Virus record (IMG/VR): IMGVR_UViG_3300045919_000425
Coordinates: 1-33,198 of that record
DNA from: a virus
Taxonomy: Duplodnaviria > Heunggongvirae > Uroviricota > Caudoviricetes
DNA length: 33,198 nt
Direction: 5' to 3' (one strand)
The translations under genes and the position numbers were made by a program. Below the pieces are notes generated by a model, which was not told the DNA's origin, searched no databases, and was given only the letters and a program-made list of their open reading frames with translations. Below are positions 3,600 through 24,036 of the stretch, piece after piece (positions within the stretch are counted from its first letter, which is position 1; each line of letters starts with the position of its first letter).

Positions 3600-3703
3600 G
3601 CTGCGATCTGAGAATTCCTGTAGGCATTAATGTCAGTTACTTTTTACAAACTAGTACAATTAAATATATTTTCAGCTCCCTATACATAATAGGGATTTTT
3701 TTA

Positions 3704-3733
3704 ATTCGTTCTTTTAACGTTAAAAGAACGAAT
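3704..3733. repeat. perfect 30-bp loopless palindrome
   Basis: ATTCGTTCTTTTAAC|GTTAAAAGAACGAAT. Confidence 0.9.
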
Positions 3734-3807
3734 ATAGGGCTTAAATCAGCAAATACTAACTATTAAGTTGTTGATTGTATTAAATATTTTTTATTTGACA
3801 GACTCAC

Positions 3808-3836
3808 TTGACTTCTAGTTAAGATTAGGATAGTAT
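3808..3836 (+). promoter_or_regulatory. early sigma70 promoter P1
   Basis: TTGACT-tctagttaagattagga-TAGTAT. Confidence 0.85.
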
Positions 3837-3999
3837 TTAAATATGGAAGGGAAACGAAAGAATCCAGTCCATAAGGTTAAAGCTCCCATACCGATAAGTC
3901 TCGGGTTGGGTTAGGCAGTGGGTAACTCCATGGTGCGGCCGGTTGCGGTGAAACAGCTTAAAGCCTTACAATTTAATAGCCTTACTACCATTAGGCGGG

Positions 4000-4114
4000 T
4001 TACGATTTAGATTGTAACGATAAGTAAAATGATTCATTGGAGTACGATCAAGTGGGTTAGTCACCACATGAAATAATACGACGATCCAAAGAATGAAAAC
4101 TTTACTTACTTTAC
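4000..4114 (+). ncRNA. candidate structured leader RNA, family R1 copy A
   Basis: covarying stems shared with 5491-5609 and 8692-8808. Confidence 0.6.
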
Positions 4115-4152
4115 CGTTTAAATAATTCAACAATTTTTAAGGAGATCCCAAG

Positions 4153-4440
4153 ATGACAAATCTATGTAACATCAACGAGCTTTCGAGATTTTCTCAAGTA
4201 TGTGGTTCCAATGAATTTGATAAGTTTGTTAAAGGCTCTCTAGTAGGTTCAAAGGCAATTCAAGTTAAGGATTCCTACTATTTTGCAGTAGCTAATAAGT
4301 CCTTTGAGGGTAAGCTAGCTTGGACTATTCACCAATTAAATAGATTCGGTGATGTGTCGGCTGTTTGCGACAAGAAAAGATTCTCGAGCTTTGAGCGTGC
4401 GGTGCAAGTAATAGAATCAATAGTAAAAAATCTCCCTTGA
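4153..4440 (+). CDS. small early protein, paralog family A
   Basis: AAGGAG RBS; similar to 7292-7600 and 10476-10793. Confidence 0.75.
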   Translation: MTNLCNINELSRFSQVCGSNEFDKFVKGSLVGSKAIQVKDSYYFAVANKSFEGKLAWTIHQLNRFGDVSAVCDKKRFSSFERAVQVIESIVKNLP

Positions 4441-4501
4441 TGTGCCGATAAAGAACGTATTAACTATAACCATACAAATGAATCATTAATCGGAGTTTAA
4501 C

Positions 4502-4747
4502 ATGGTAGCTAAATCAAGTAAAAAAGGTTATTTTGGCGTTATATTAAAGGATAAAAATACTGACGACTTGGATTTTAACGGACTTACAAGCGAGTTTTTA
4601 GCTGATTCGGACAAAGAAGCTTGTGCTGTGGCTCAATACATTCTTGAAAAAAGAAAAGCGGAACTCAAACTATCAAATCAAGTGATTATTGTTTATCAAG
4701 TAAAGAAAGATACTTTTACCGTCGTGATGAAATATTCTTTCGCCTAA
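4502..4747 (+). CDS. hypothetical early protein
   Basis: GGAG RBS, 81 aa. Confidence 0.7.
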   Translation: MVAKSSKKGYFGVILKDKNTDDLDFNGLTSEFLADSDKEACAVAQYILEKRKAELKLSNQVIIVYQVKKDTFTVVMKYSFA

Positions 4748-4795
4748 GTCCACTTAAACTACTTAATACAAAAATAACTTTTAGGAGATATAAGT

Positions 4796-5083
4796 ATGTC
4801 GAAATTTTCGATTCGCTCCACTGCCACTCAATTGGAGAGATGGTTAGATAAGCTAGGAGTAGCGTATAAATCTATCCATGCGGATTATGGTAGCAGGTAT
4901 ATAGATGTGAGATTGCCATACATAGACGAATTCTGTAAGATTCGCATAAGCGACCATATGGCTAGGTACGATTGTGACTTCTCTATTAGCCCATTCGAAT
5001 TAAGTCTTTCTTATGTAAAAAAAGAAGTAAAGAAGCTAATTAAGAAAAATTTCGAGAATCAACTACTAGAGGCACTAGAATAG
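4796..5083 (+). CDS. hypothetical early protein
   Basis: AGGAG RBS, 95 aa. Confidence 0.7.
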   Translation: MSKFSIRSTATQLERWLDKLGVAYKSIHADYGSRYIDVRLPYIDEFCKIRISDHMARYDCDFSISPFELSLSYVKKEVKKLIKKNFENQLLEALE

Positions 5084-5134
5084 TATCGTAAACTTATTAA
5101 TCAATCACATTCCACAAATAAAGGAGTAACTCTT

Positions 5135-5320
5135 ATGAGATTCAAGGCAGGTACGCTAGTTGTAACTGATTACGATATCAAGGCAGGCATAACAACAGGT
5201 ACTATCTACGAGGTGTTAGATTTCGACAACACCGTTGAAGGTAAAGAGTTAATACTTATTGAAGATGACAACGGCCAAAACACTTGGCAGAATCCATACA
5301 AGTTCTACGAGTCAAAATAA
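5135..5320 (+). CDS. small beta-rich (SH3-like) early protein
   Basis: AAGGAG RBS; FKAGTLVV..TTGTIYEV..ILIEDDNG pattern. Confidence 0.6.
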   Translation: MRFKAGTLVVTDYDIKAGITTGTIYEVLDFDNTVEGKELILIEDDNGQNTWQNPYKFYESK

Positions 5321-5333
5321 ATGGTCAAGCTAC

Positions 5334-5362
5334 TTGACTTCTAGTTAAGATTAGGATAGTAT
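5334..5362 (+). promoter_or_regulatory. early sigma70 promoter P2
   Basis: identical -35/spacer/-10 to P1. Confidence 0.85.
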
Positions 5363-5490
5363 TTAAATAGGAGAAGAATACTTCTCCGAGCACCGAGAGG
5401 GTTTAACCGCTAGCGAAACTGAGGTTAAACAAGTAAATGGGACACCGACTATACAGGTGTTGACCTGAACCCAAGAGTACCGGGTAAGTT

Positions 5491-5609
5491 CAATCGAAAG
5501 ATTGCAACGATAAGTAAAATGATTCGATGGAGTAGGCAACTAGTGAGATAAGCGCACTTTACCAAAAAGGAAAGCTTGGCCGAAAGATTAAATACTTTAC
5601 TTACATTGC
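5491..5609 (+). ncRNA. candidate structured leader RNA, family R1 copy B
   Basis: GCAA-CGA-TAAGTAAA ... TTTACTTA-CA-TTGC; GGAGTA/GAAAG internal loop. Confidence 0.6.
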
Positions 5610-5654
5610 TTTTTTAACGACTCTAAACAAAACAATCTTTAAGGAGATTCATAA

Positions 5655-5873
5655 ATGAGACAAAAGCTAACAATATTAGAAACTAGAGAAAAAATTGAAG
5701 AGTTAAACAATTCAATATCCGAGGGTTGGCTAGAGGTTAGCGATCTGTATAAAGAATTAGCCGCCAAACCTAACAGTCAAGATATTAAAGATACAATAGC
5801 ACTTGTTAAAAGCATTACCCGTGAAAATATCAACGAATCCAAAAGACTAGAAAACACACTTGTAAACCTGTAA
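5655..5873 (+). CDS. small coiled-coil early protein
   Basis: AAGGAG RBS, heptad-like pattern. Confidence 0.65.
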   Translation: MRQKLTILETREKIEELNNSISEGWLEVSDLYKELAAKPNSQDIKDTIALVKSITRENINESKRLENTLVNL

Positions 5874-5923
5874 CACAGGAAAAATATTCAAAAAAAATAA
5901 AGTCAAAAACTTTAGTCCACTAC

Positions 5924-5952
5924 TTGACTTCTAGTTAAGATTGTGAGAATAT
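5924..5952 (+). promoter_or_regulatory. early sigma70 promoter P3
   Basis: TTGACT-17-GAATAT with extended -10 TG. Confidence 0.75.
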
Positions 5953-5992
5953 ATGAATAAGGAAGGGAACTTGGAAACCAGGAACTTTCCAA

Positions 5993-6004
5993 GTTATTTG
6001 ACAA
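5993..6004 (+). promoter_or_regulatory. boxA-like element
   Basis: GTTATTTGACAA after a 5' hairpin; identical at 7114-7125 and 8619-8630. Confidence 0.5.
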
Positions 6005-6009
6005 TTTTG

Positions 6010-6073
6010 GGTTTGAATCCTTTAAATAGGATCGGGAGCCTGCTAGTCTGGAATAAGATGGCTAGTTATGATA
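6010..6073 (+). ncRNA. candidate two-hairpin leader RNA, family R2 copy 1
   Basis: covaries with 7131-7191. Confidence 0.5.
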
Positions 6074-6167
6074 CGAACGAAAAGTTTAAAAGCTTTTTGA
6101 TATTAGGTTGAACTTTTCAGTCTAATACAAAGCGTTTTTTAACCAAACAATTTTTAGGAGATAAACA

Positions 6168-6530
6168 ATGACAACTAATCAAATCACTTTCGCTCAAGCT
6201 TACATATTCGCTAAAGAGTTAATTACTCAAAGATGTGAAAACTACGGTTATGACTACAAAGTGTTTCAAAGAATTAGCCGCCAACGCTCCGACGCAAGAA
6301 AAGCGTTCCAACATTTCTTCCACTTCAACCCTGAAACAGTAATACAAAGACTTGCTAACGAATACAGAGTAAGTCTTGAAAGCTGTAAAATCACAGAAAC
6401 ACTTTCAAGCGGCTCTAAGATTGTCAAAGAAGAAATGAGGCTTACTTATACAGTTGGGCAATCTAACAATGAAGAAATTACCAACCTCTTGAGAAGATTA
6501 GTAAACCCAAAAGCTAAATGGGTACAATAA
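6168..6530 (+). CDS. early protein, paralog family B
   Basis: RCENYGY, RISRQRSDAR, YTVGQSNNEEITNLLRRLVN shared with 9112 and 10101. Confidence 0.85.
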   Translation: MTTNQITFAQAYIFAKELITQRCENYGYDYKVFQRISRQRSDARKAFQHFFHFNPETVIQRLANEYRVSLESCKITETLSSGSKIVKEEMRLTYTVGQSNNEEITNLLRRLVNPKAKWVQ

Positions 6531-6541
6531 GAAAGGACGCT

Positions 6542-6727
6542 ATGAGAGTTTACCTTGTATATAGAATGGAAGACGCAAACACTTACTCTTATCATGAGTT
6601 TATATCAGAGCTTCATTGTATAACACTGACCGAGGACAAAGCGATAGAAATAGTTAATGAATTAAACAAGGGGATTAGAAGCCTTGAGCGTGAAGCGTAC
6701 TATAACCCTGAAGACGTAATCGAGTAA
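6542..6727 (+). CDS. hypothetical early protein
   Basis: AAGGA RBS favours ATG 6542 (MRVYLVY...). Confidence 0.65.
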   Translation: MRVYLVYRMEDANTYSYHEFISELHCITLTEDKAIEIVNELNKGIRSLEREAYYNPEDVIE

Positions 6728-6757
6728 CAATAAACAAACATTTAGGGAGACTTAAAA

Positions 6758-7021
6758 ATGACTAAGAAAGGTGTTGAAGTTTCGACCGATTTCTTACTTG
6801 AAAAATTTTACAGTAAAATAAGCAGCTATTTTACTGTTCAAACTCATATCTTGGCAGATGGGACTTGCGAAGAGTTTAACGAGTTAGAACTTTTTAAGTC
6901 CCATGAACAGTTTAAGTCAAAGAGGTATGGGTGGTTTCAGGATTGGCTTAAAGCTCGTTGCAAAACGGGATTATTAAGAAAAGAAGGTAAAAAGCCAAAT
7001 GTAAGGTATTTCGCACTGTAA
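6758..7021 (+). CDS. hypothetical early protein
   Basis: GGGAG RBS, 87 aa. Confidence 0.7.
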   Translation: MTKKGVEVSTDFLLEKFYSKISSYFTVQTHILADGTCEEFNELELFKSHEQFKSKRYGWFQDWLKARCKTGLLRKEGKKPNVRYFAL

Positions 7022-7038
7022 AAATAATGGACCGCAGT

Positions 7039-7125
7039 ACTTGACTTATAGTTAAGATTAGGATAGTATTTAAATATGGAAGGGATAAGAGAACAAAACC
7101 TCAAAATCCCTAAGTTATTTGACAA
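7039..7125 (+). repeat. 87-bp exact direct repeat (promoter P4 + 5' hairpin + boxA-like element), second copy 8544-8630
   Basis: base-by-base identity; TTGACT 7041-7046, TAGTAT 7064-7069. Confidence 0.95.
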
Positions 7126-7130
7126 TTTTG

Positions 7131-7191
7131 AAGCTGTACTCTTAAGAGAGTCGGGGCTTTACTCGGTTGGAAACGATACCGAGTTATGATA
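7131..7191 (+). ncRNA. candidate leader RNA, family R2 copy 2
   Basis: AAGCT/GGCTT, ACTCT/AGAGT and CTCGGT/ACCGAG stems; TTATGATA tail. Confidence 0.5.
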
Positions 7192-7210
7192 AAAAGATTA
7201 CAACCGAGAA

Positions 7211-7265
7211 TAACAAACTTAACTGCTAGGGATATTAACCCTAGAGGATAAGAATGTTTCTTATC
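7211..7265 (+). ncRNA. candidate RNA, family R3 copy 1
   Basis: covaries with 10026-10078. Confidence 0.5.
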
Positions 7266-7291
7266 AGAACGAAATTTTTTAGGAGGTTCCC

Positions 7292-7600
7292 ATGACTACA
7301 GTTCAATCTATCGTATCTATTTCTGAAGTTGTTGAGTATGCTAATGTTTGCGGCTCCGATTTTTTCAAGTCCTCAATGCTTAAAAGTATCGGCTGTGAAA
7401 TTATTAAAGGCTCTGAGGCTTTTCTTGCTAATAATAAGTATTATTTCGTAACATGCGATAAGATTATTGGAGATAAAAAACCAGGCTACACAGTTCGTTG
7501 CTTAAATTCTCTCGGAAACACCAAGACGCTTGGCTCTTACCAACAATTCAAATCATATAACCATGCAATGCGTGTAATTAAAGCCCATCTTTCTAAGTAA
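7292..7600 (+). CDS. small early protein, paralog family A
   Basis: AGGAGG RBS; VCGSDFF, YYFVT, YTVR..NSLG, FKSYNHA. Confidence 0.8.
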   Translation: MTTVQSIVSISEVVEYANVCGSDFFKSSMLKSIGCEIIKGSEAFLANNKYYFVTCDKIIGDKKPGYTVRCLNSLGNTKTLGSYQQFKSYNHAMRVIKAHLSK

Positions 7601-7641
7601 CCTAACAATAAACCATTAAACTTAAACATTTAGGAGATAAC

Positions 7642-8310
7642 ATGGAAAATAAGAGCTATTTCTATTTCAGTAAAGAACTTAGTAAGTGGATTGTCGCTAC
7701 AAATCTAACTATTGTAGTAGGCCAATATGATAGCTTAAACGACGCAACAAAAGCATATGAGCTTTTAACTAGTAAGCCAATACTAGACACTAAGCCAGTA
7801 AAAAGACGATCCTTAAAAGGATTACGCAAGGCGGTTAGAAGCTACCACAGAGCGATAGCAAAGGGAGATCTTAAGACTTCCTCTTGCTCTAAAGAGGAAG
7901 CGATTGTAGCACTGTCTACTACAAGTAATCAACAAACAGACACTAAACCAGTTAAACGTATACGTTTAACCTCAGTTGAAAAGAAGGGATTCTATTACAA
8001 CAAGAAAGCAAAGAAATTTCAAGCCTATTTTGGTGTTGGTGCCGGGAAGCAACTATATCTCGGATTGTACGAAACAGAGTCGGACGCACGTCATGCAAAT
8101 CTCAGAGCCATGCTAGAGTACAGATCTAAAGGTTCCGTAACAATCCCATTTGTTTGTCCGAAAATGGGGTACTACTTGAAAGGTAATCAGTGGGATGTTT
8201 GCTTTTATAACCCATTAACCAAAAAGACGGAATTTATGCCATCTTTCAAATCTCAACTGGAAGCTAGAGAAGCCTACTTAGACGCACTTGAGGAAATACT
8301 CGGAGGTTAA
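7642..8310 (+). CDS. protein with AP2-like DNA-binding repeats
   Basis: KKGFYYNKKAKKFQAYFGVGAGKQLYLGLYETESDARHA matches the AP2 pattern; weaker N- and C-terminal copies. Confidence 0.6.
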   Translation: MENKSYFYFSKELSKWIVATNLTIVVGQYDSLNDATKAYELLTSKPILDTKPVKRRSLKGLRKAVRSYHRAIAKGDLKTSSCSKEEAIVALSTTSNQQTDTKPVKRIRLTSVEKKGFYYNKKAKKFQAYFGVGAGKQLYLGLYETESDARHANLRAMLEYRSKGSVTIPFVCPKMGYYLKGNQWDVCFYNPLTKKTEFMPSFKSQLEAREAYLDALEEILGG

Positions 8311-8314
8311 GTTT

Positions 8315-8533
8315 ATGACAATAAGAGTTATTAACGGTAAACGCTACAGTTTTGATAAGCAAAGATCTTACTGTGATTCAGTTGAAACTTTTTGCTACAA
8401 GGTTCATGAAGTAAACGGAAACAATAAGCAAATCTCAGTAAGCGACACTTTACCCCTCAAAATGTCTTACCTTGTTGAAATGATTAAAGAAAATAGGCTA
8501 TGCCTTGAAAGATTAGAAGGAGTAGAAAAATAA
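8315..8533 (+). CDS. hypothetical early protein
   Basis: GGAGG RBS favours ATG 8315. Confidence 0.65.
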   Translation: MTIRVINGKRYSFDKQRSYCDSVETFCYKVHEVNGNNKQISVSDTLPLKMSYLVEMIKENRLCLERLEGVEK

Positions 8534-8543
8534 TTTCATAATC

Positions 8544-8630
8544 ACTTGACTTATAGTTAAGATTAGGATAGTATTTAAATATGGAAGGGATAAGAGAACA
8601 AAACCTCAAAATCCCTAAGTTATTTGACAA
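8544..8630 (+). repeat. 87-bp exact direct repeat, copy 2 (promoter P5)
   Basis: TTGACT 8546-8551, TAGTAT 8569-8574. Confidence 0.95.
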
Positions 8631-8691
8631 CTAAATAGGTGCTGGTAGGGCTTACCAACAATAAGCGACAAGCCTACTAAGTTAAAGGTTA

Positions 8692-8808
8692 CAACCAAGG
8701 GTTGCACCGATAAGCAAGAAATTGAATGGATTAGGTTACTGTGGGTTAGTCACCACATCAACAAAAATAAAAGGACAGCCGAAAGATTCAAGCCTTGCTT
8801 ACATTGCA
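8692..8808 (+). ncRNA. candidate structured leader RNA, family R1 copy C
   Basis: TAAGCAAG/CTTGCTTA compensatory version of TAAGTAAA/TTTACTTA. Confidence 0.6.
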
Positions 8809-8845
8809 GTTCTTACAAACAAATAATAATTTTTAGGAGGTTTCA

Positions 8846-9073
8846 ATGGAAGGCTTACTTGTAGATAACAACATGTTAGTTGAATGGTTTAATGAATATG
8901 TAGATATGAATAATCCCAAAATAACGCTCATGGGTTATTCATATAGATCCTCTGATGTTTTAAAGATAAGTAAAGAACGCTATGATTTTGAATTTAATCA
9001 ATGGTTAGAAATGGAAATAGATCTTGGCAAATTATTACAGGATGATTTAGGCAACATTTACGAACCGTTTTAA
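8846..9073 (+). CDS. acidic hypothetical early protein
   Basis: AGGAGG RBS, 75 aa. Confidence 0.7.
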   Translation: MEGLLVDNNMLVEWFNEYVDMNNPKITLMGYSYRSSDVLKISKERYDFEFNQWLEMEIDLGKLLQDDLGNIYEPF

Positions 9074-9111: not shown

Positions 9112-9471
9112 ATGACAGTTCAAGAAAATCAAATCACAATCGAAATGTTAAACGCTTTCACTTCCGAGTTACTAACTGCTCGTTGCAATAACTACGGCTA
9201 TGATTACAGAGACTTTAAAAGAATTTCAAGCCAAAGAAGTAAGGCGAGAAAAGCTCTTTTAAATCAAGTTAGCTCATTCGGCTTTGAATCTATTAAAGCT
9301 AACTTAGTTCAAGAAGCGAGAATACAGTTTATGAGATTTAAAATTATTGACGGCAATAAAATTCCAACTTTTGAACGTGGGATATGTTACATGGTTGGTC
9401 AGTCTTCAAATGAAGAAATTACCAACCTTATGAGAAGATTAGTGAATTCACAATCTAAGTGGGTTAAATAA
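9112..9471 (+). CDS. early protein, paralog family B
   Basis: RCNNYGY, RISSQRSKAR, YMVGQSSNEEITNLMRRLVN. Confidence 0.85.
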   Translation: MTVQENQITIEMLNAFTSELLTARCNNYGYDYRDFKRISSQRSKARKALLNQVSSFGFESIKANLVQEARIQFMRFKIIDGNKIPTFERGICYMVGQSSNEEITNLMRRLVNSQSKWVK

Positions 9472-9524: not shown

Positions 9525-10028
9525 ATGAACATATTCGTAACATCTACATGCCCATTCTCAAGCGCAAGAGCGCTAGATGATAAGCGCCTAATCAAAATGA
9601 TCCTTGAAACTGCACAAATCCTCTCCACAAATTGCCATCTAGCAAATCTAACCGACGCACCATATAAGAAAACCCATCAAAATCATCCGTGCACTGTGTG
9701 GGCTAGACAGTCTTACGCTAACACCAATTGGTTAATCGACCACTTTAACGCTTTAAGCGGTGAATATACACACAGATTCAATAAAATTCATAAATCAAGT
9801 CAATACTTACAATATTTCATTGATTCTAGTAAGAAGCTAGCTCTTGAAGGGTTTTACCCAAATCAGGGAATGAGTGAGTTTGCAAGCTGCGTAGCTGATG
9901 ATCTCAAGACGCTTCAATTAAGCGTCACTGAAAAATACCGGGCATACATGAAAATGAAGTGGGTTGCAGATCAATCATCAAAGAGGCATGCTAAGTGGAC
10001 CAACACCAATCAACCAAATTGGCTATAA
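9525..10028 (+). CDS. pyrimidine-dimer DNA glycosylase family protein
   Basis: MNIF..DDKRLIKMILETAQILST..YKKTHQNHPCTVW..EYTHRFNKIHKS. Confidence 0.8.
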   Translation: MNIFVTSTCPFSSARALDDKRLIKMILETAQILSTNCHLANLTDAPYKKTHQNHPCTVWARQSYANTNWLIDHFNALSGEYTHRFNKIHKSSQYLQYFIDSSKKLALEGFYPNQGMSEFASCVADDLKTLQLSVTEKYRAYMKMKWVADQSSKRHAKWTNTNQPNWL

Positions 10029-10078
10029 CAAACTTAACCGCTAAGGATAATGACCTTAGAGGGTAGGAATGTTCTACT
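10026..10078 (+). ncRNA. candidate RNA, family R3 copy 2
   Basis: TAACAAACTTAAC-CG-CTAAGG/CCTTAG-AGG-GTAGGA/TTCTAC. Confidence 0.5.
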
Positions 10079-10100: not shown

Positions 10101-10412
10101 ATGACAGTTACACAAATTACAGTTGAAATGCTAAATGATTTTACATCCTCTTTATTAGCAAACCGTTGTGATAATTATGGCTACATTTGGAAAGATTTCC
10201 GTAGGATCTCTAACCAAAGAAGCAAGGCAAGAACTGAGTTCCGTAGCTTTGTAAAGTATTTTACTGGGACCTTAATAGAAAGAATTGAGCAAGAAAGTAG
10301 AATACAACTAGAAAATGGCAAGCTAACTTACATTGTAGGTCAATCAAGTAATGAAGAAATTACTAATCTCATGAGAAGGTTAGTAAATCCAAAAGATAAA
10401 TGGGTAAGTTAA
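10101..10412 (+). CDS. early protein, paralog family B
   Basis: RCDNYGY, RISNQRSKAR, YIVGQSSNEEITNLMRRLVN. Confidence 0.85.
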   Translation: MTVTQITVEMLNDFTSSLLANRCDNYGYIWKDFRRISNQRSKARTEFRSFVKYFTGTLIERIEQESRIQLENGKLTYIVGQSSNEEITNLMRRLVNPKDKWVS

Positions 10413-23691: not shown

Positions 23692-24036
23692 CTATCTCCT
23701 GTGTATTGTGATTTCGTTGTCCTCTGAAATAACCGTAATCGGGAAAATCCTATCTTCGCAAATCATCTCATCAATTCTCTGTTTAGTGAAATATCCACCA
23801 AAAATCTTTGCAGTTTGGTCATCAAAGGTTCTTAATTTACTTAGCGCCTCTTCTTTTGTCTGTGCGGCGATGAAAATATCCCCATACGGAATCCCCAAAT
23901 TCAATCTAGCTTTAAAGTACTTAATTTCATCTATCACTTGCAGTCTCTTCATTGTCGGTTTAAATCTCTCGTAAGACTCCTTAATCATATTACGAAGCTC
24001 ACTGATCGTTGGTTTTGTTTTCATACATCTCTCCAT
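23692..24036 (-). CDS. hypothetical protein
   Basis: 114 aa; true start may be ATG 24024. Confidence 0.65.
   Translation of the reverse strand: MERCMKTKPTISELRNMIKESYERFKPTMKRLQVIDEIKYFKARLNLGIPYGDIFIAAQTKEEALSKLRTFDDQTAKIFGGYFTKQRIDEMICEDRIFPITVISEDNEITIHRR

Follow-up and report, generated by a model that had tools for sequence, protein, structure and literature searches.

The window analyzed here, a stretch of 33,198 nucleotides (nt), covers the first 33 kb of a virus record of 158,938 bp, which has an estimated completeness of 98% and a G+C content of 38.5%. Between positions 3.8 and 17 kb, it contains many small codirectional genes, and host-type promoters (CTTGACTTNTAGTTAAGATT plus a -10 element) recur at positions 3807, 5333, 5923, 7040, 8545, 12575, 14050, and 16413. 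Each of these promoters is followed by an untranslated leader, which is 210 to 310 nt long in five of the eight cases and 59 to 96 nt long in the other three. Two of the leaders carry an RNA element, R2, which a preliminary description of this sequence had singled out as a covarying pair of stem-loops situated directly after a boxA-like element. The features of the two R2-led units are as follows.

5924 to 5952, plus strand: early promoter of the copy 1 unit (-35 TTGACT, 17-nt spacer with TG, -10 GAATAT)
5962 to 5989, plus strand: H0, the promoter-proximal, purine-rich 5' hairpin of copy 1 (predicted fold)
5992 to 6009, plus strand: boxA-like box AGTTATTTGACAATTTTG, directly abutting P1 of copy 1
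6010 to 6073, plus strand: R2 copy 1, with helices P1 (6010-6014/6036-6040), P2 (6017-6021/6028-6032), and P3 (6042-6048/6060-6066, loop UGGAAUAAGAU), internal loop GA (6015-6016) versus CGG (6033-6035), linker 6041, and tail UAUGAUA (6067-6073)
7041 to 7069, plus strand: early promoter of the copy 2 unit (-35 TTGACT, 17 nt, -10 TAGTAT)
7082 to 7110, plus strand: H0, the promoter-proximal 5' hairpin of copy 2 (predicted fold)
7113 to 7130, plus strand: boxA-like box of copy 2, identical to that of copy 1
7131 to 7191, plus strand: R2 copy 2, with helices P1 (7131-7135/7155-7159), P2 (7138-7142/7147-7151), and P3 (7161-7167/7178-7184, loop UGGAAACGAU), internal loop GU versus CGG, linker 7160, and tail UAUGAUA (7185-7191)
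7201 to 7208, plus strand: strand CAACCGAG, found in copy 2 only, able to form 8 bp with 7162-7169

The R2 fold runs from P1 through a G-N/C-G-G internal loop, P2, a single linker base, and P3 (loop UGGAA..GAU) to UAUGAUA. In both window copies this is the minimum free energy structure (ViennaRNA), and all of the sequence details and folds that had been described for 6010 to 6073 and 7131 to 7191 were found in place; the folding z-scores are modest (-1.9 and -2.2). Between copy 1 and copy 2, 17 of 17 pairs are kept, 9 of which are altered on both sides, and the box and the unpaired bases are identical. The preliminary generalization that stems diverge and loops are kept is borne out by the covarying stems, the P3 loop, and the internal loop, but not by the apical loop of P2, which varies. 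A covariance model built from the window pair recognized only these 2 copies in the 159-kb genome, with scores of 112.7 bits for copy 1 and 106.8 bits for copy 2 (83.1 and 96 bits, respectively, under a model of the whole family).

Nucleotide and exact-pattern searches failed to reach relatives of this phage, and these were reached through protein searches. Among the products of the genome are a DnaE-type polymerase, a Lon protease, and an RNA ligase. Relatives of Lon were found on a 53-kb contig, at 85%, and on a 166-kb contig with the same order of genes, at 67%. A profile of a 120-amino-acid (aa) early protein family, which is triplicated in the window (6168 to 6530, 9112 to 9471, and 10101 to 10412), returned 92 metagenomic homologues, and the contigs of those homologues led to syntenic early regions in four further lineages of uncultured phages. 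A covariance-model search for more copies of R2, a step that the preliminary description had suggested, added seven distinct copies and brought the total to nine. Members score 83 to 103 bits against the family model, and the next best match scores 18 bits. The added copies, all of them covariance-model matches, lie at the following positions.

Contig L022: 2992 to 3077
Contig L031: 13798 to 13883
Contig L025: 6397 to 6483, 7738 to 7823, and 9834 to 9919
Contig L064: 48 to 133 and 669 to 754

Comparison of the nine copies establishes that R2 is a genuine RNA structure under selection in early leaders. The conservation of structure in homologs, on which the preliminary description had made its proposal depend, is present: 98.6% of cells in the nine-sequence alignment are paired, with two-sided changes at 13 of the 17 pairs. 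None of 500 shuffles reached any of the R2 pairing measures, and sliding the 3' partners by 1 to 3 columns, which preserves relatedness, reduced pairing to 20 to 54%. There are four distinct P1 and seven distinct P3 stem sequences across the nine copies. G·U combinations make up about 12% of paired cells, including an invariant U·G that closes P1, and because each of these would be an A·C mismatch on the other strand, the constraint acts on the plus-strand RNA and not on the DNA. A set of unpaired bases (G26, C44-G45-G46, and the U, GG, A, and GA of the P3 loop) is invariant while the stems drift, suggesting specific recognition rather than mere stability. The second G of the P3 loop faces U in seven copies, C in one, and G in one, and the facing bases within this loop suggest that P3 continues through a bulged U, a G·U pair, and tandem G·A pairs.

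Several other explanations for the conserved segment were rejected. Coding potential is contradicted by insertions and deletions of 4 and 1 nt among the copies, which disrupt all reading frames, and a leader peptide initiated at the AUG of UAUGAUA by the loss of this AUG in three of nine copies and by the lack of a ribosome-binding site. A CRISPR repeat or other fixed-sequence mimic does not fit, because the stems differ among copies. One of the L064 copies (669 to 754, L064_b) consists of the P1/P2 of L025:6397-6483 (L025_a) and the P3 of L025:7738-7823 (L025_b), these mixed origins pointing to recombination or gene conversion between leader copies.

R2 is restricted to promoter-proximal early leaders, where it stands in a fixed order and at zero spacing with the box. 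The order promoter, 5' hairpin, box AGTWAYTTGACAAYYTTG, and R2 occurs in eight of the eight copies with upstream sequence; the contig of the ninth starts within the -10 region, after which the hairpin, the box, and R2 all follow. The promoter ahead of eight of the nine copies is of the sigma70 type, with a -35 element TTGAC(T/A), a 17-nt spacer, and a -10 element, and the box begins 27 to 43 nt after the -10 element and runs into P1 without a spacer. The purine-rich H0 hairpin precedes the box in all nine copies and varies in its stem sequences, and the box is the best-conserved stretch of the family alignment. Its 13-mer core (window positions 5992 to 6004) occurs three times in the 159-kb genome, each time in the leader-box position.

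The box also resembles promoter DNA, in that it shares ACTTGAC(A/T) with the -35 region of early promoters (5923, 7040, and L025:6337), and in L025 the box 13-mer itself overlaps a promoter -35. Its TTGACA is a perfect -35 hexamer, but the box was rejected as a promoter because no copy has a -10 element at 16 to 18 nt. A closing helix between the box and an AUAAC tail was likewise discarded, there being no covariation. At the other end of R2, directly 3' of P3, the nontemplate strand bears a -10-like hexamer, which is TATGAT in six of nine copies and TATGTT or TAAGAT in two more (window positions 6067 to 6072 and 7185 to 7190, and the corresponding sites in relatives). By analogy with putL (PMC9378689), this hexamer is a possible sigma-dependent pause site.

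In the early leaders, a constant promoter-hairpin-box chassis carries modules that can replace one another. The promoter of copy 2 lies inside an exact 87-bp repeat (7039 to 7125 is the same as 8544 to 8630), and the window contains one further cassette.

8618 to 8630, plus strand: third hairpin-plus-box cassette, after which another folded module takes the place of R2

The same cassette carries at least two other covarying modules, one of the kind found at window position 8618 and L022:2348 and one of the kind found at L022:1083. The module after the third cassette (8631 to 8682 and L022:2361-2410) reads AUAGGUGCUGGUrGGGyyUACCAACAAUArGCGACAAGCCyACUAAG, shows compensatory changes between the two phages, and has an R1-type module downstream of it; it is a candidate third leader RNA family. 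Downstream of R2 itself, six copies have a further hairpin (GAAAR..YUUUC) and then GAUAUUAGG, and three copies have an R1-type module starting ACAACC...GGUUGCACCGAUAAGC, which in window copy 2 is a mere remnant. The former, termed the P4/P5 extension, was seen by eye in its six of nine copies, and its RNAalifold support is weak and its alignment poor. That R2 continues with either the P4/P5 extension or an R1-type module indicates that the leaders are modular.

Two known systems offer close comparisons for a box joined to a folded RNA at the start of a transcript. The nut site of phages lambda and P22 consists of boxA, a spacer, and boxB, and it acts with N and the host factors NusA, NusB, NusE, and NusG; the antiterminator of rRNA operon (rrn) leaders consists of a boxB hairpin, boxA, and boxC and operates through the rrnTAC with Nus factors, SuhB, and S4. 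Like nut, R2 is a putative cis-acting RNA of early leaders that is duplicated behind several early promoters. The P2 hairpin starts 7 nt after the single-stranded boxA-like box, and its loop is a GNRA tetraloop (GUAA or GAAA), as in boxB-like hairpins, in seven of nine copies, all from other phages. R2 is much larger than boxB, with three helices, a conserved internal loop, and a second hairpin, and the absence of a GNRA loop from both window copies implies that this loop is dispensable. R2 further differs from nut in that a hairpin also precedes its box and in that no N-like gene was recognized. Leaders with R2 resemble those of rrn operons in combining a strong promoter, a hairpin, a boxA-like box, and a downstream element within a long, structured, untranslated RNA. 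Unlike boxC, whose place it takes, R2 is a folded domain and not a short G/U-rich box. The R2 model, run with strict filters on a sample that comprised 5 whole genomes and, from candidate host phyla, 151 genomes each of Bdellovibrionota and Cyanobacteria, returned no match.

The established geometry of the known systems (PMC10250234 and PMC2724277) is boxA followed by a hairpin within 7 nt in lambda nut and the succession hairpin, boxA, downstream element in rrn leaders. The boxA-like box matches the rrn boxA 12-mers of Escherichia coli and Aquifex at 8 to 9 of 12 positions; the rrn boxA of the host may differ from both. The Aquifex 12-mer and three differences that set E. coli apart from it were taken from PMC3177189, and the full E. 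coli 12-mer is partly a reconstruction from that text. In kind, R2 appears to belong with the early-leader RNA signals of phages (nut, put, and rrn-like boxA); the form, a three-helix domain fused to the box, is new.

We favor the reading, with a probability of roughly 40%, that the box and R2 form a boxA-coupled leader element, similar to nut and rrn, that acts during transcription. The main clue to a cotranscriptional, protective signal is the fixed fusion of R2 to the box, and the rrn-like order, the nut-like geometry, the conservation of unpaired bases, and the untranslated leaders, which are long and of an RNA type that boxA complexes protect from Rho, point in the same direction. Transcription would start at strong, sigma70-like promoters of the host type, and R2 would emerge about 45 to 60 nt after the start site, directly behind the 5' hairpin and the single-stranded boxA-like box, as a domain of about 57 nt and three helices in the nascent early transcripts of an uncultured freshwater phage clade with genomes of about 160 kb. 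The box and R2 would be the two halves of a single cis-acting leader signal comparable to those of nut and rrn. The box would recruit host factors of the NusB/NusE type, and R2 would present its invariant bases (the U·G pair that closes P1, G26, the bulged C-G-G, and U-GG-A..GA in the P3 loop) to the polymerase or to an accessory factor. The elongation complex would in this way gain resistance to premature termination, above all of the Rho type, along the leaders, which are 210 to 330 nt long, untranslated, and highly structured, and along the early genes that follow.

A more specific version, in which the box and R2 represent a new class of processive antitermination or anti-Rho signal and at least two other RNA domains can stand in for R2 on this chassis, is offered tentatively. 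If correct, it would mean that a folded domain plus a boxA-like box reprograms host RNA polymerase at the very start of early transcripts in a little-known group of freshwater phages. Very few known systems (nut, put, rrn boxA, and EAR) have RNA signals that cause RNA polymerase to ignore stops, and a functional R2 and box would add a new and easily mutable example; they would also illustrate the assembly of early "host-takeover" operons in large uncultured phages out of promoter and leader modules that can be exchanged. Even as a protein-binding site, R2 would be a clean new RNA family with defined invariant bases.

Several observations weigh against a nut- or rrn-like role. The box deviates from the boxA core of E. 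coli and Aquifex at two positions (C3 to U and C5 to A), and the ACTTGAC that it has in common with the -35 region raises the possibility of a role at the DNA level. The P2 loops of the window copies, UUAAAU and UAAG, are not of the GNRA type. No N-like protein was recognized: the first gene after R2 encodes a member of the 120-aa family in five of nine cases and a DUF7447 protein (7292 to 7600 in the window) in two, and Pfam searches of these first genes gave no match except DUF7447. The 120-aa protein is confidently modeled by AlphaFold (pLDDT 91.8) as four helices and a beta hairpin, a fold for which Foldseek returned no match in the PDB. The R2-led units of the window are short (0.9 and 1.3 kb), and a simple scan detected no intrinsic terminator between them, such that the need for antitermination is not obvious. 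Finally, the cassette carries other modules in the place of R2, so R2 may be its cargo.

This last possibility treats R2 as an interchangeable folded module that the hairpin-plus-boxA cassette would protect, in the way that rRNA is protected, and that would serve as a 5' stabilizer of mRNA, a processing signal, or an abundant noncoding RNA. The occurrence of the same cassette ahead of at least two other covarying modules (8618, L022:1083, and L022:2348), the alternative continuations downstream of R2, and the recombined P1/P2 and P3 versions in L064_b are all consistent with cargo, but the invariant unpaired bases and the zero spacing to the box imply more than passive stability, and the helices (5 plus 5 and 7 bp) are too short for an RNase III site; we consider this account unlikely. 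The invariant bases could alternatively be read by a protein after transcription. RNAs bound by CsrA or RsmA, which include the CsrB and RsmZ sponges and mRNA leaders, present GGA in hairpin loops, and UGGA is invariant in the hairpin loop of P3. R2 could then be a posttranscriptional operator or sponge whose P3-loop GGA is bound by a CsrA-type regulator of the phage or host, or by an early phage protein, with the other GGA sites and the AGGAG ribosome-binding site also bound and the translation or decay of early mRNAs controlled as in the RegA shutoff of T4. The two R2 leaders of the window contain 8 and 6 GGA trinucleotides, or 3.8 and 2.8 per 100 nt as against 1.4 to 1.6 genome-wide, and the phage encodes a CsrA homologue of 69 aa (genome positions 78783 to 78992, minus strand, 45.6 kb past the window; Pfam PF02599, 58 bits). 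The frequent position of R2 ahead of a 120-aa family gene would suit such an operator, but the family is also present in phages that are more distant and lack R2. The GGA motif is very short and of low specificity, and each R2 offers a single strong candidate site with atypical flanks: CsrA sites typically have an A two positions upstream of GGA, where R2 has another base. The P3 loop is large (10 to 11 nt) and has a conserved GA and U that CsrA would not need, the distance of 82 to 166 nt from P3 to the ribosome-binding site is far for a bridging dimer, and the obligatory fusion with the box is left unexplained. We regard an operator or sponge as the strongest rival of the favored reading, although itself rather unlikely.

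The preliminary description had drawn an analogy with the put sites of phage HK022, of which putL and putR are factor-independent antiterminator RNAs that bind the zinc-binding domain of the beta' subunit (PMC9378689). The analogy holds in outline: both have two stem-loops joined by a single unpaired base, with bulges in put and an internal loop in one stem of R2, both are situated just downstream of early promoters in at least two diverged copies per phage, and the -10-like TATGAT after P3 recalls the -10-like pause element of putL discussed in the same paper. It does not extend to kinship, for the R2 model, run with filters off against positions 24000 to 36000 of HK022, which include the early control region, gave a best match of only 9.6 bits (E = 3), and R2 is shorter, at about 57 nt compared with about 73 nt and an RNA triplex in put (PMC9378689). 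Nor does the independence from boxA carry over, since every R2 copy is joined to a boxA-like box and put functions without one; we regard it as highly unlikely that R2, whose action on polymerase is putative, binds RNA polymerase alone and renders it termination resistant without other factors. Least credible is a role for R2, or for copy 2 at the least, as a conformational switch or riboswitch, with P3 alternating with pairing to CAACCGAG to regulate expression. The 8-bp pairing of 7201 to 7208 with 7162 to 7169 that had been described in copy 2 exists and is predicted to prevail over P3 at equilibrium, by about 2.3 kcal/mol and with a pair probability of 85 to 96% (ViennaRNA), and the competing strand contains a direct repeat of the P3 3' arm (ACCGAG), as in classic switches. 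The competing duplex has a predicted energy of -14.0 kcal/mol in copy 2 versus -4.9 to -9.7 kcal/mol in the other eight copies, and because the pairing is confined to one of nine copies, it is not a property of the R2 family. In the alignment, the competing strand matches the beginning (ACAACC) of the R1-type module found behind R2 in two relatives, and it lies in what appears to be a truncated start of such a module, the switch would affect neither a terminator nor the ribosome-binding site, Rfam yields no riboswitch match, and the energy model ignores likely noncanonical pairs in the conserved P3 loop. In copy 2 itself, the modeled pairing may have a copy-specific role.

Targeted searches of metagenome and species-genome collections turned up R2 only in a small clade of freshwater phages; the sequencing run that yielded one relative is cited in a metagenome study of freshwater lakes (PMC11283720). 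Rfam 15 does not contain R2 and gave no match at gathering thresholds over the window and only two chance-level matches (E values of about 1 and 3.4) over 3700 to 9000, and no paper describing it was found. A family-model search of more distant phages that carry the 120-aa family recovered no R2, exact-pattern and single-protein scans of IMG/VR found no relatives, and a pattern scan of metagenomes produced 22 matches, all due to chance and none fitting the R2 model. In the cultured-phage collection, nucleotide and protein searches gave no match to the early region or its genes; by DnaE, the nearest cultured phage is Myxococcus phage Mx1, at only 29% identity. The box gave no lead to a host: its 12-nt form is at background level in the 702 genomes sampled (401 Pseudomonadota and 301 Bdellovibrionota), and the exact 18-nt form has 84 matches in the species-genome collection, all inside coding sequence. 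About 20 of these matches (L065, L068, L127, and about 17 others) fall in one orthologous protein-coding gene of many Microcoleus species that is not near rRNA, and they were dismissed as a clue to the host because they reflect a coincidence with conserved coding sequence and not an rRNA leader.

One further repeat was observed in the early region. A 49-nt stretch in the rest of the copy 2 leader (7210 to 7258) is 86% identical to a stretch ahead of the third gene of the 120-aa family (10025 to 10073). It can form a hairpin, CUAGGG..CCCUAG, which in the second of these sites is CUAAGG..CCUUAG, a compensatory change.

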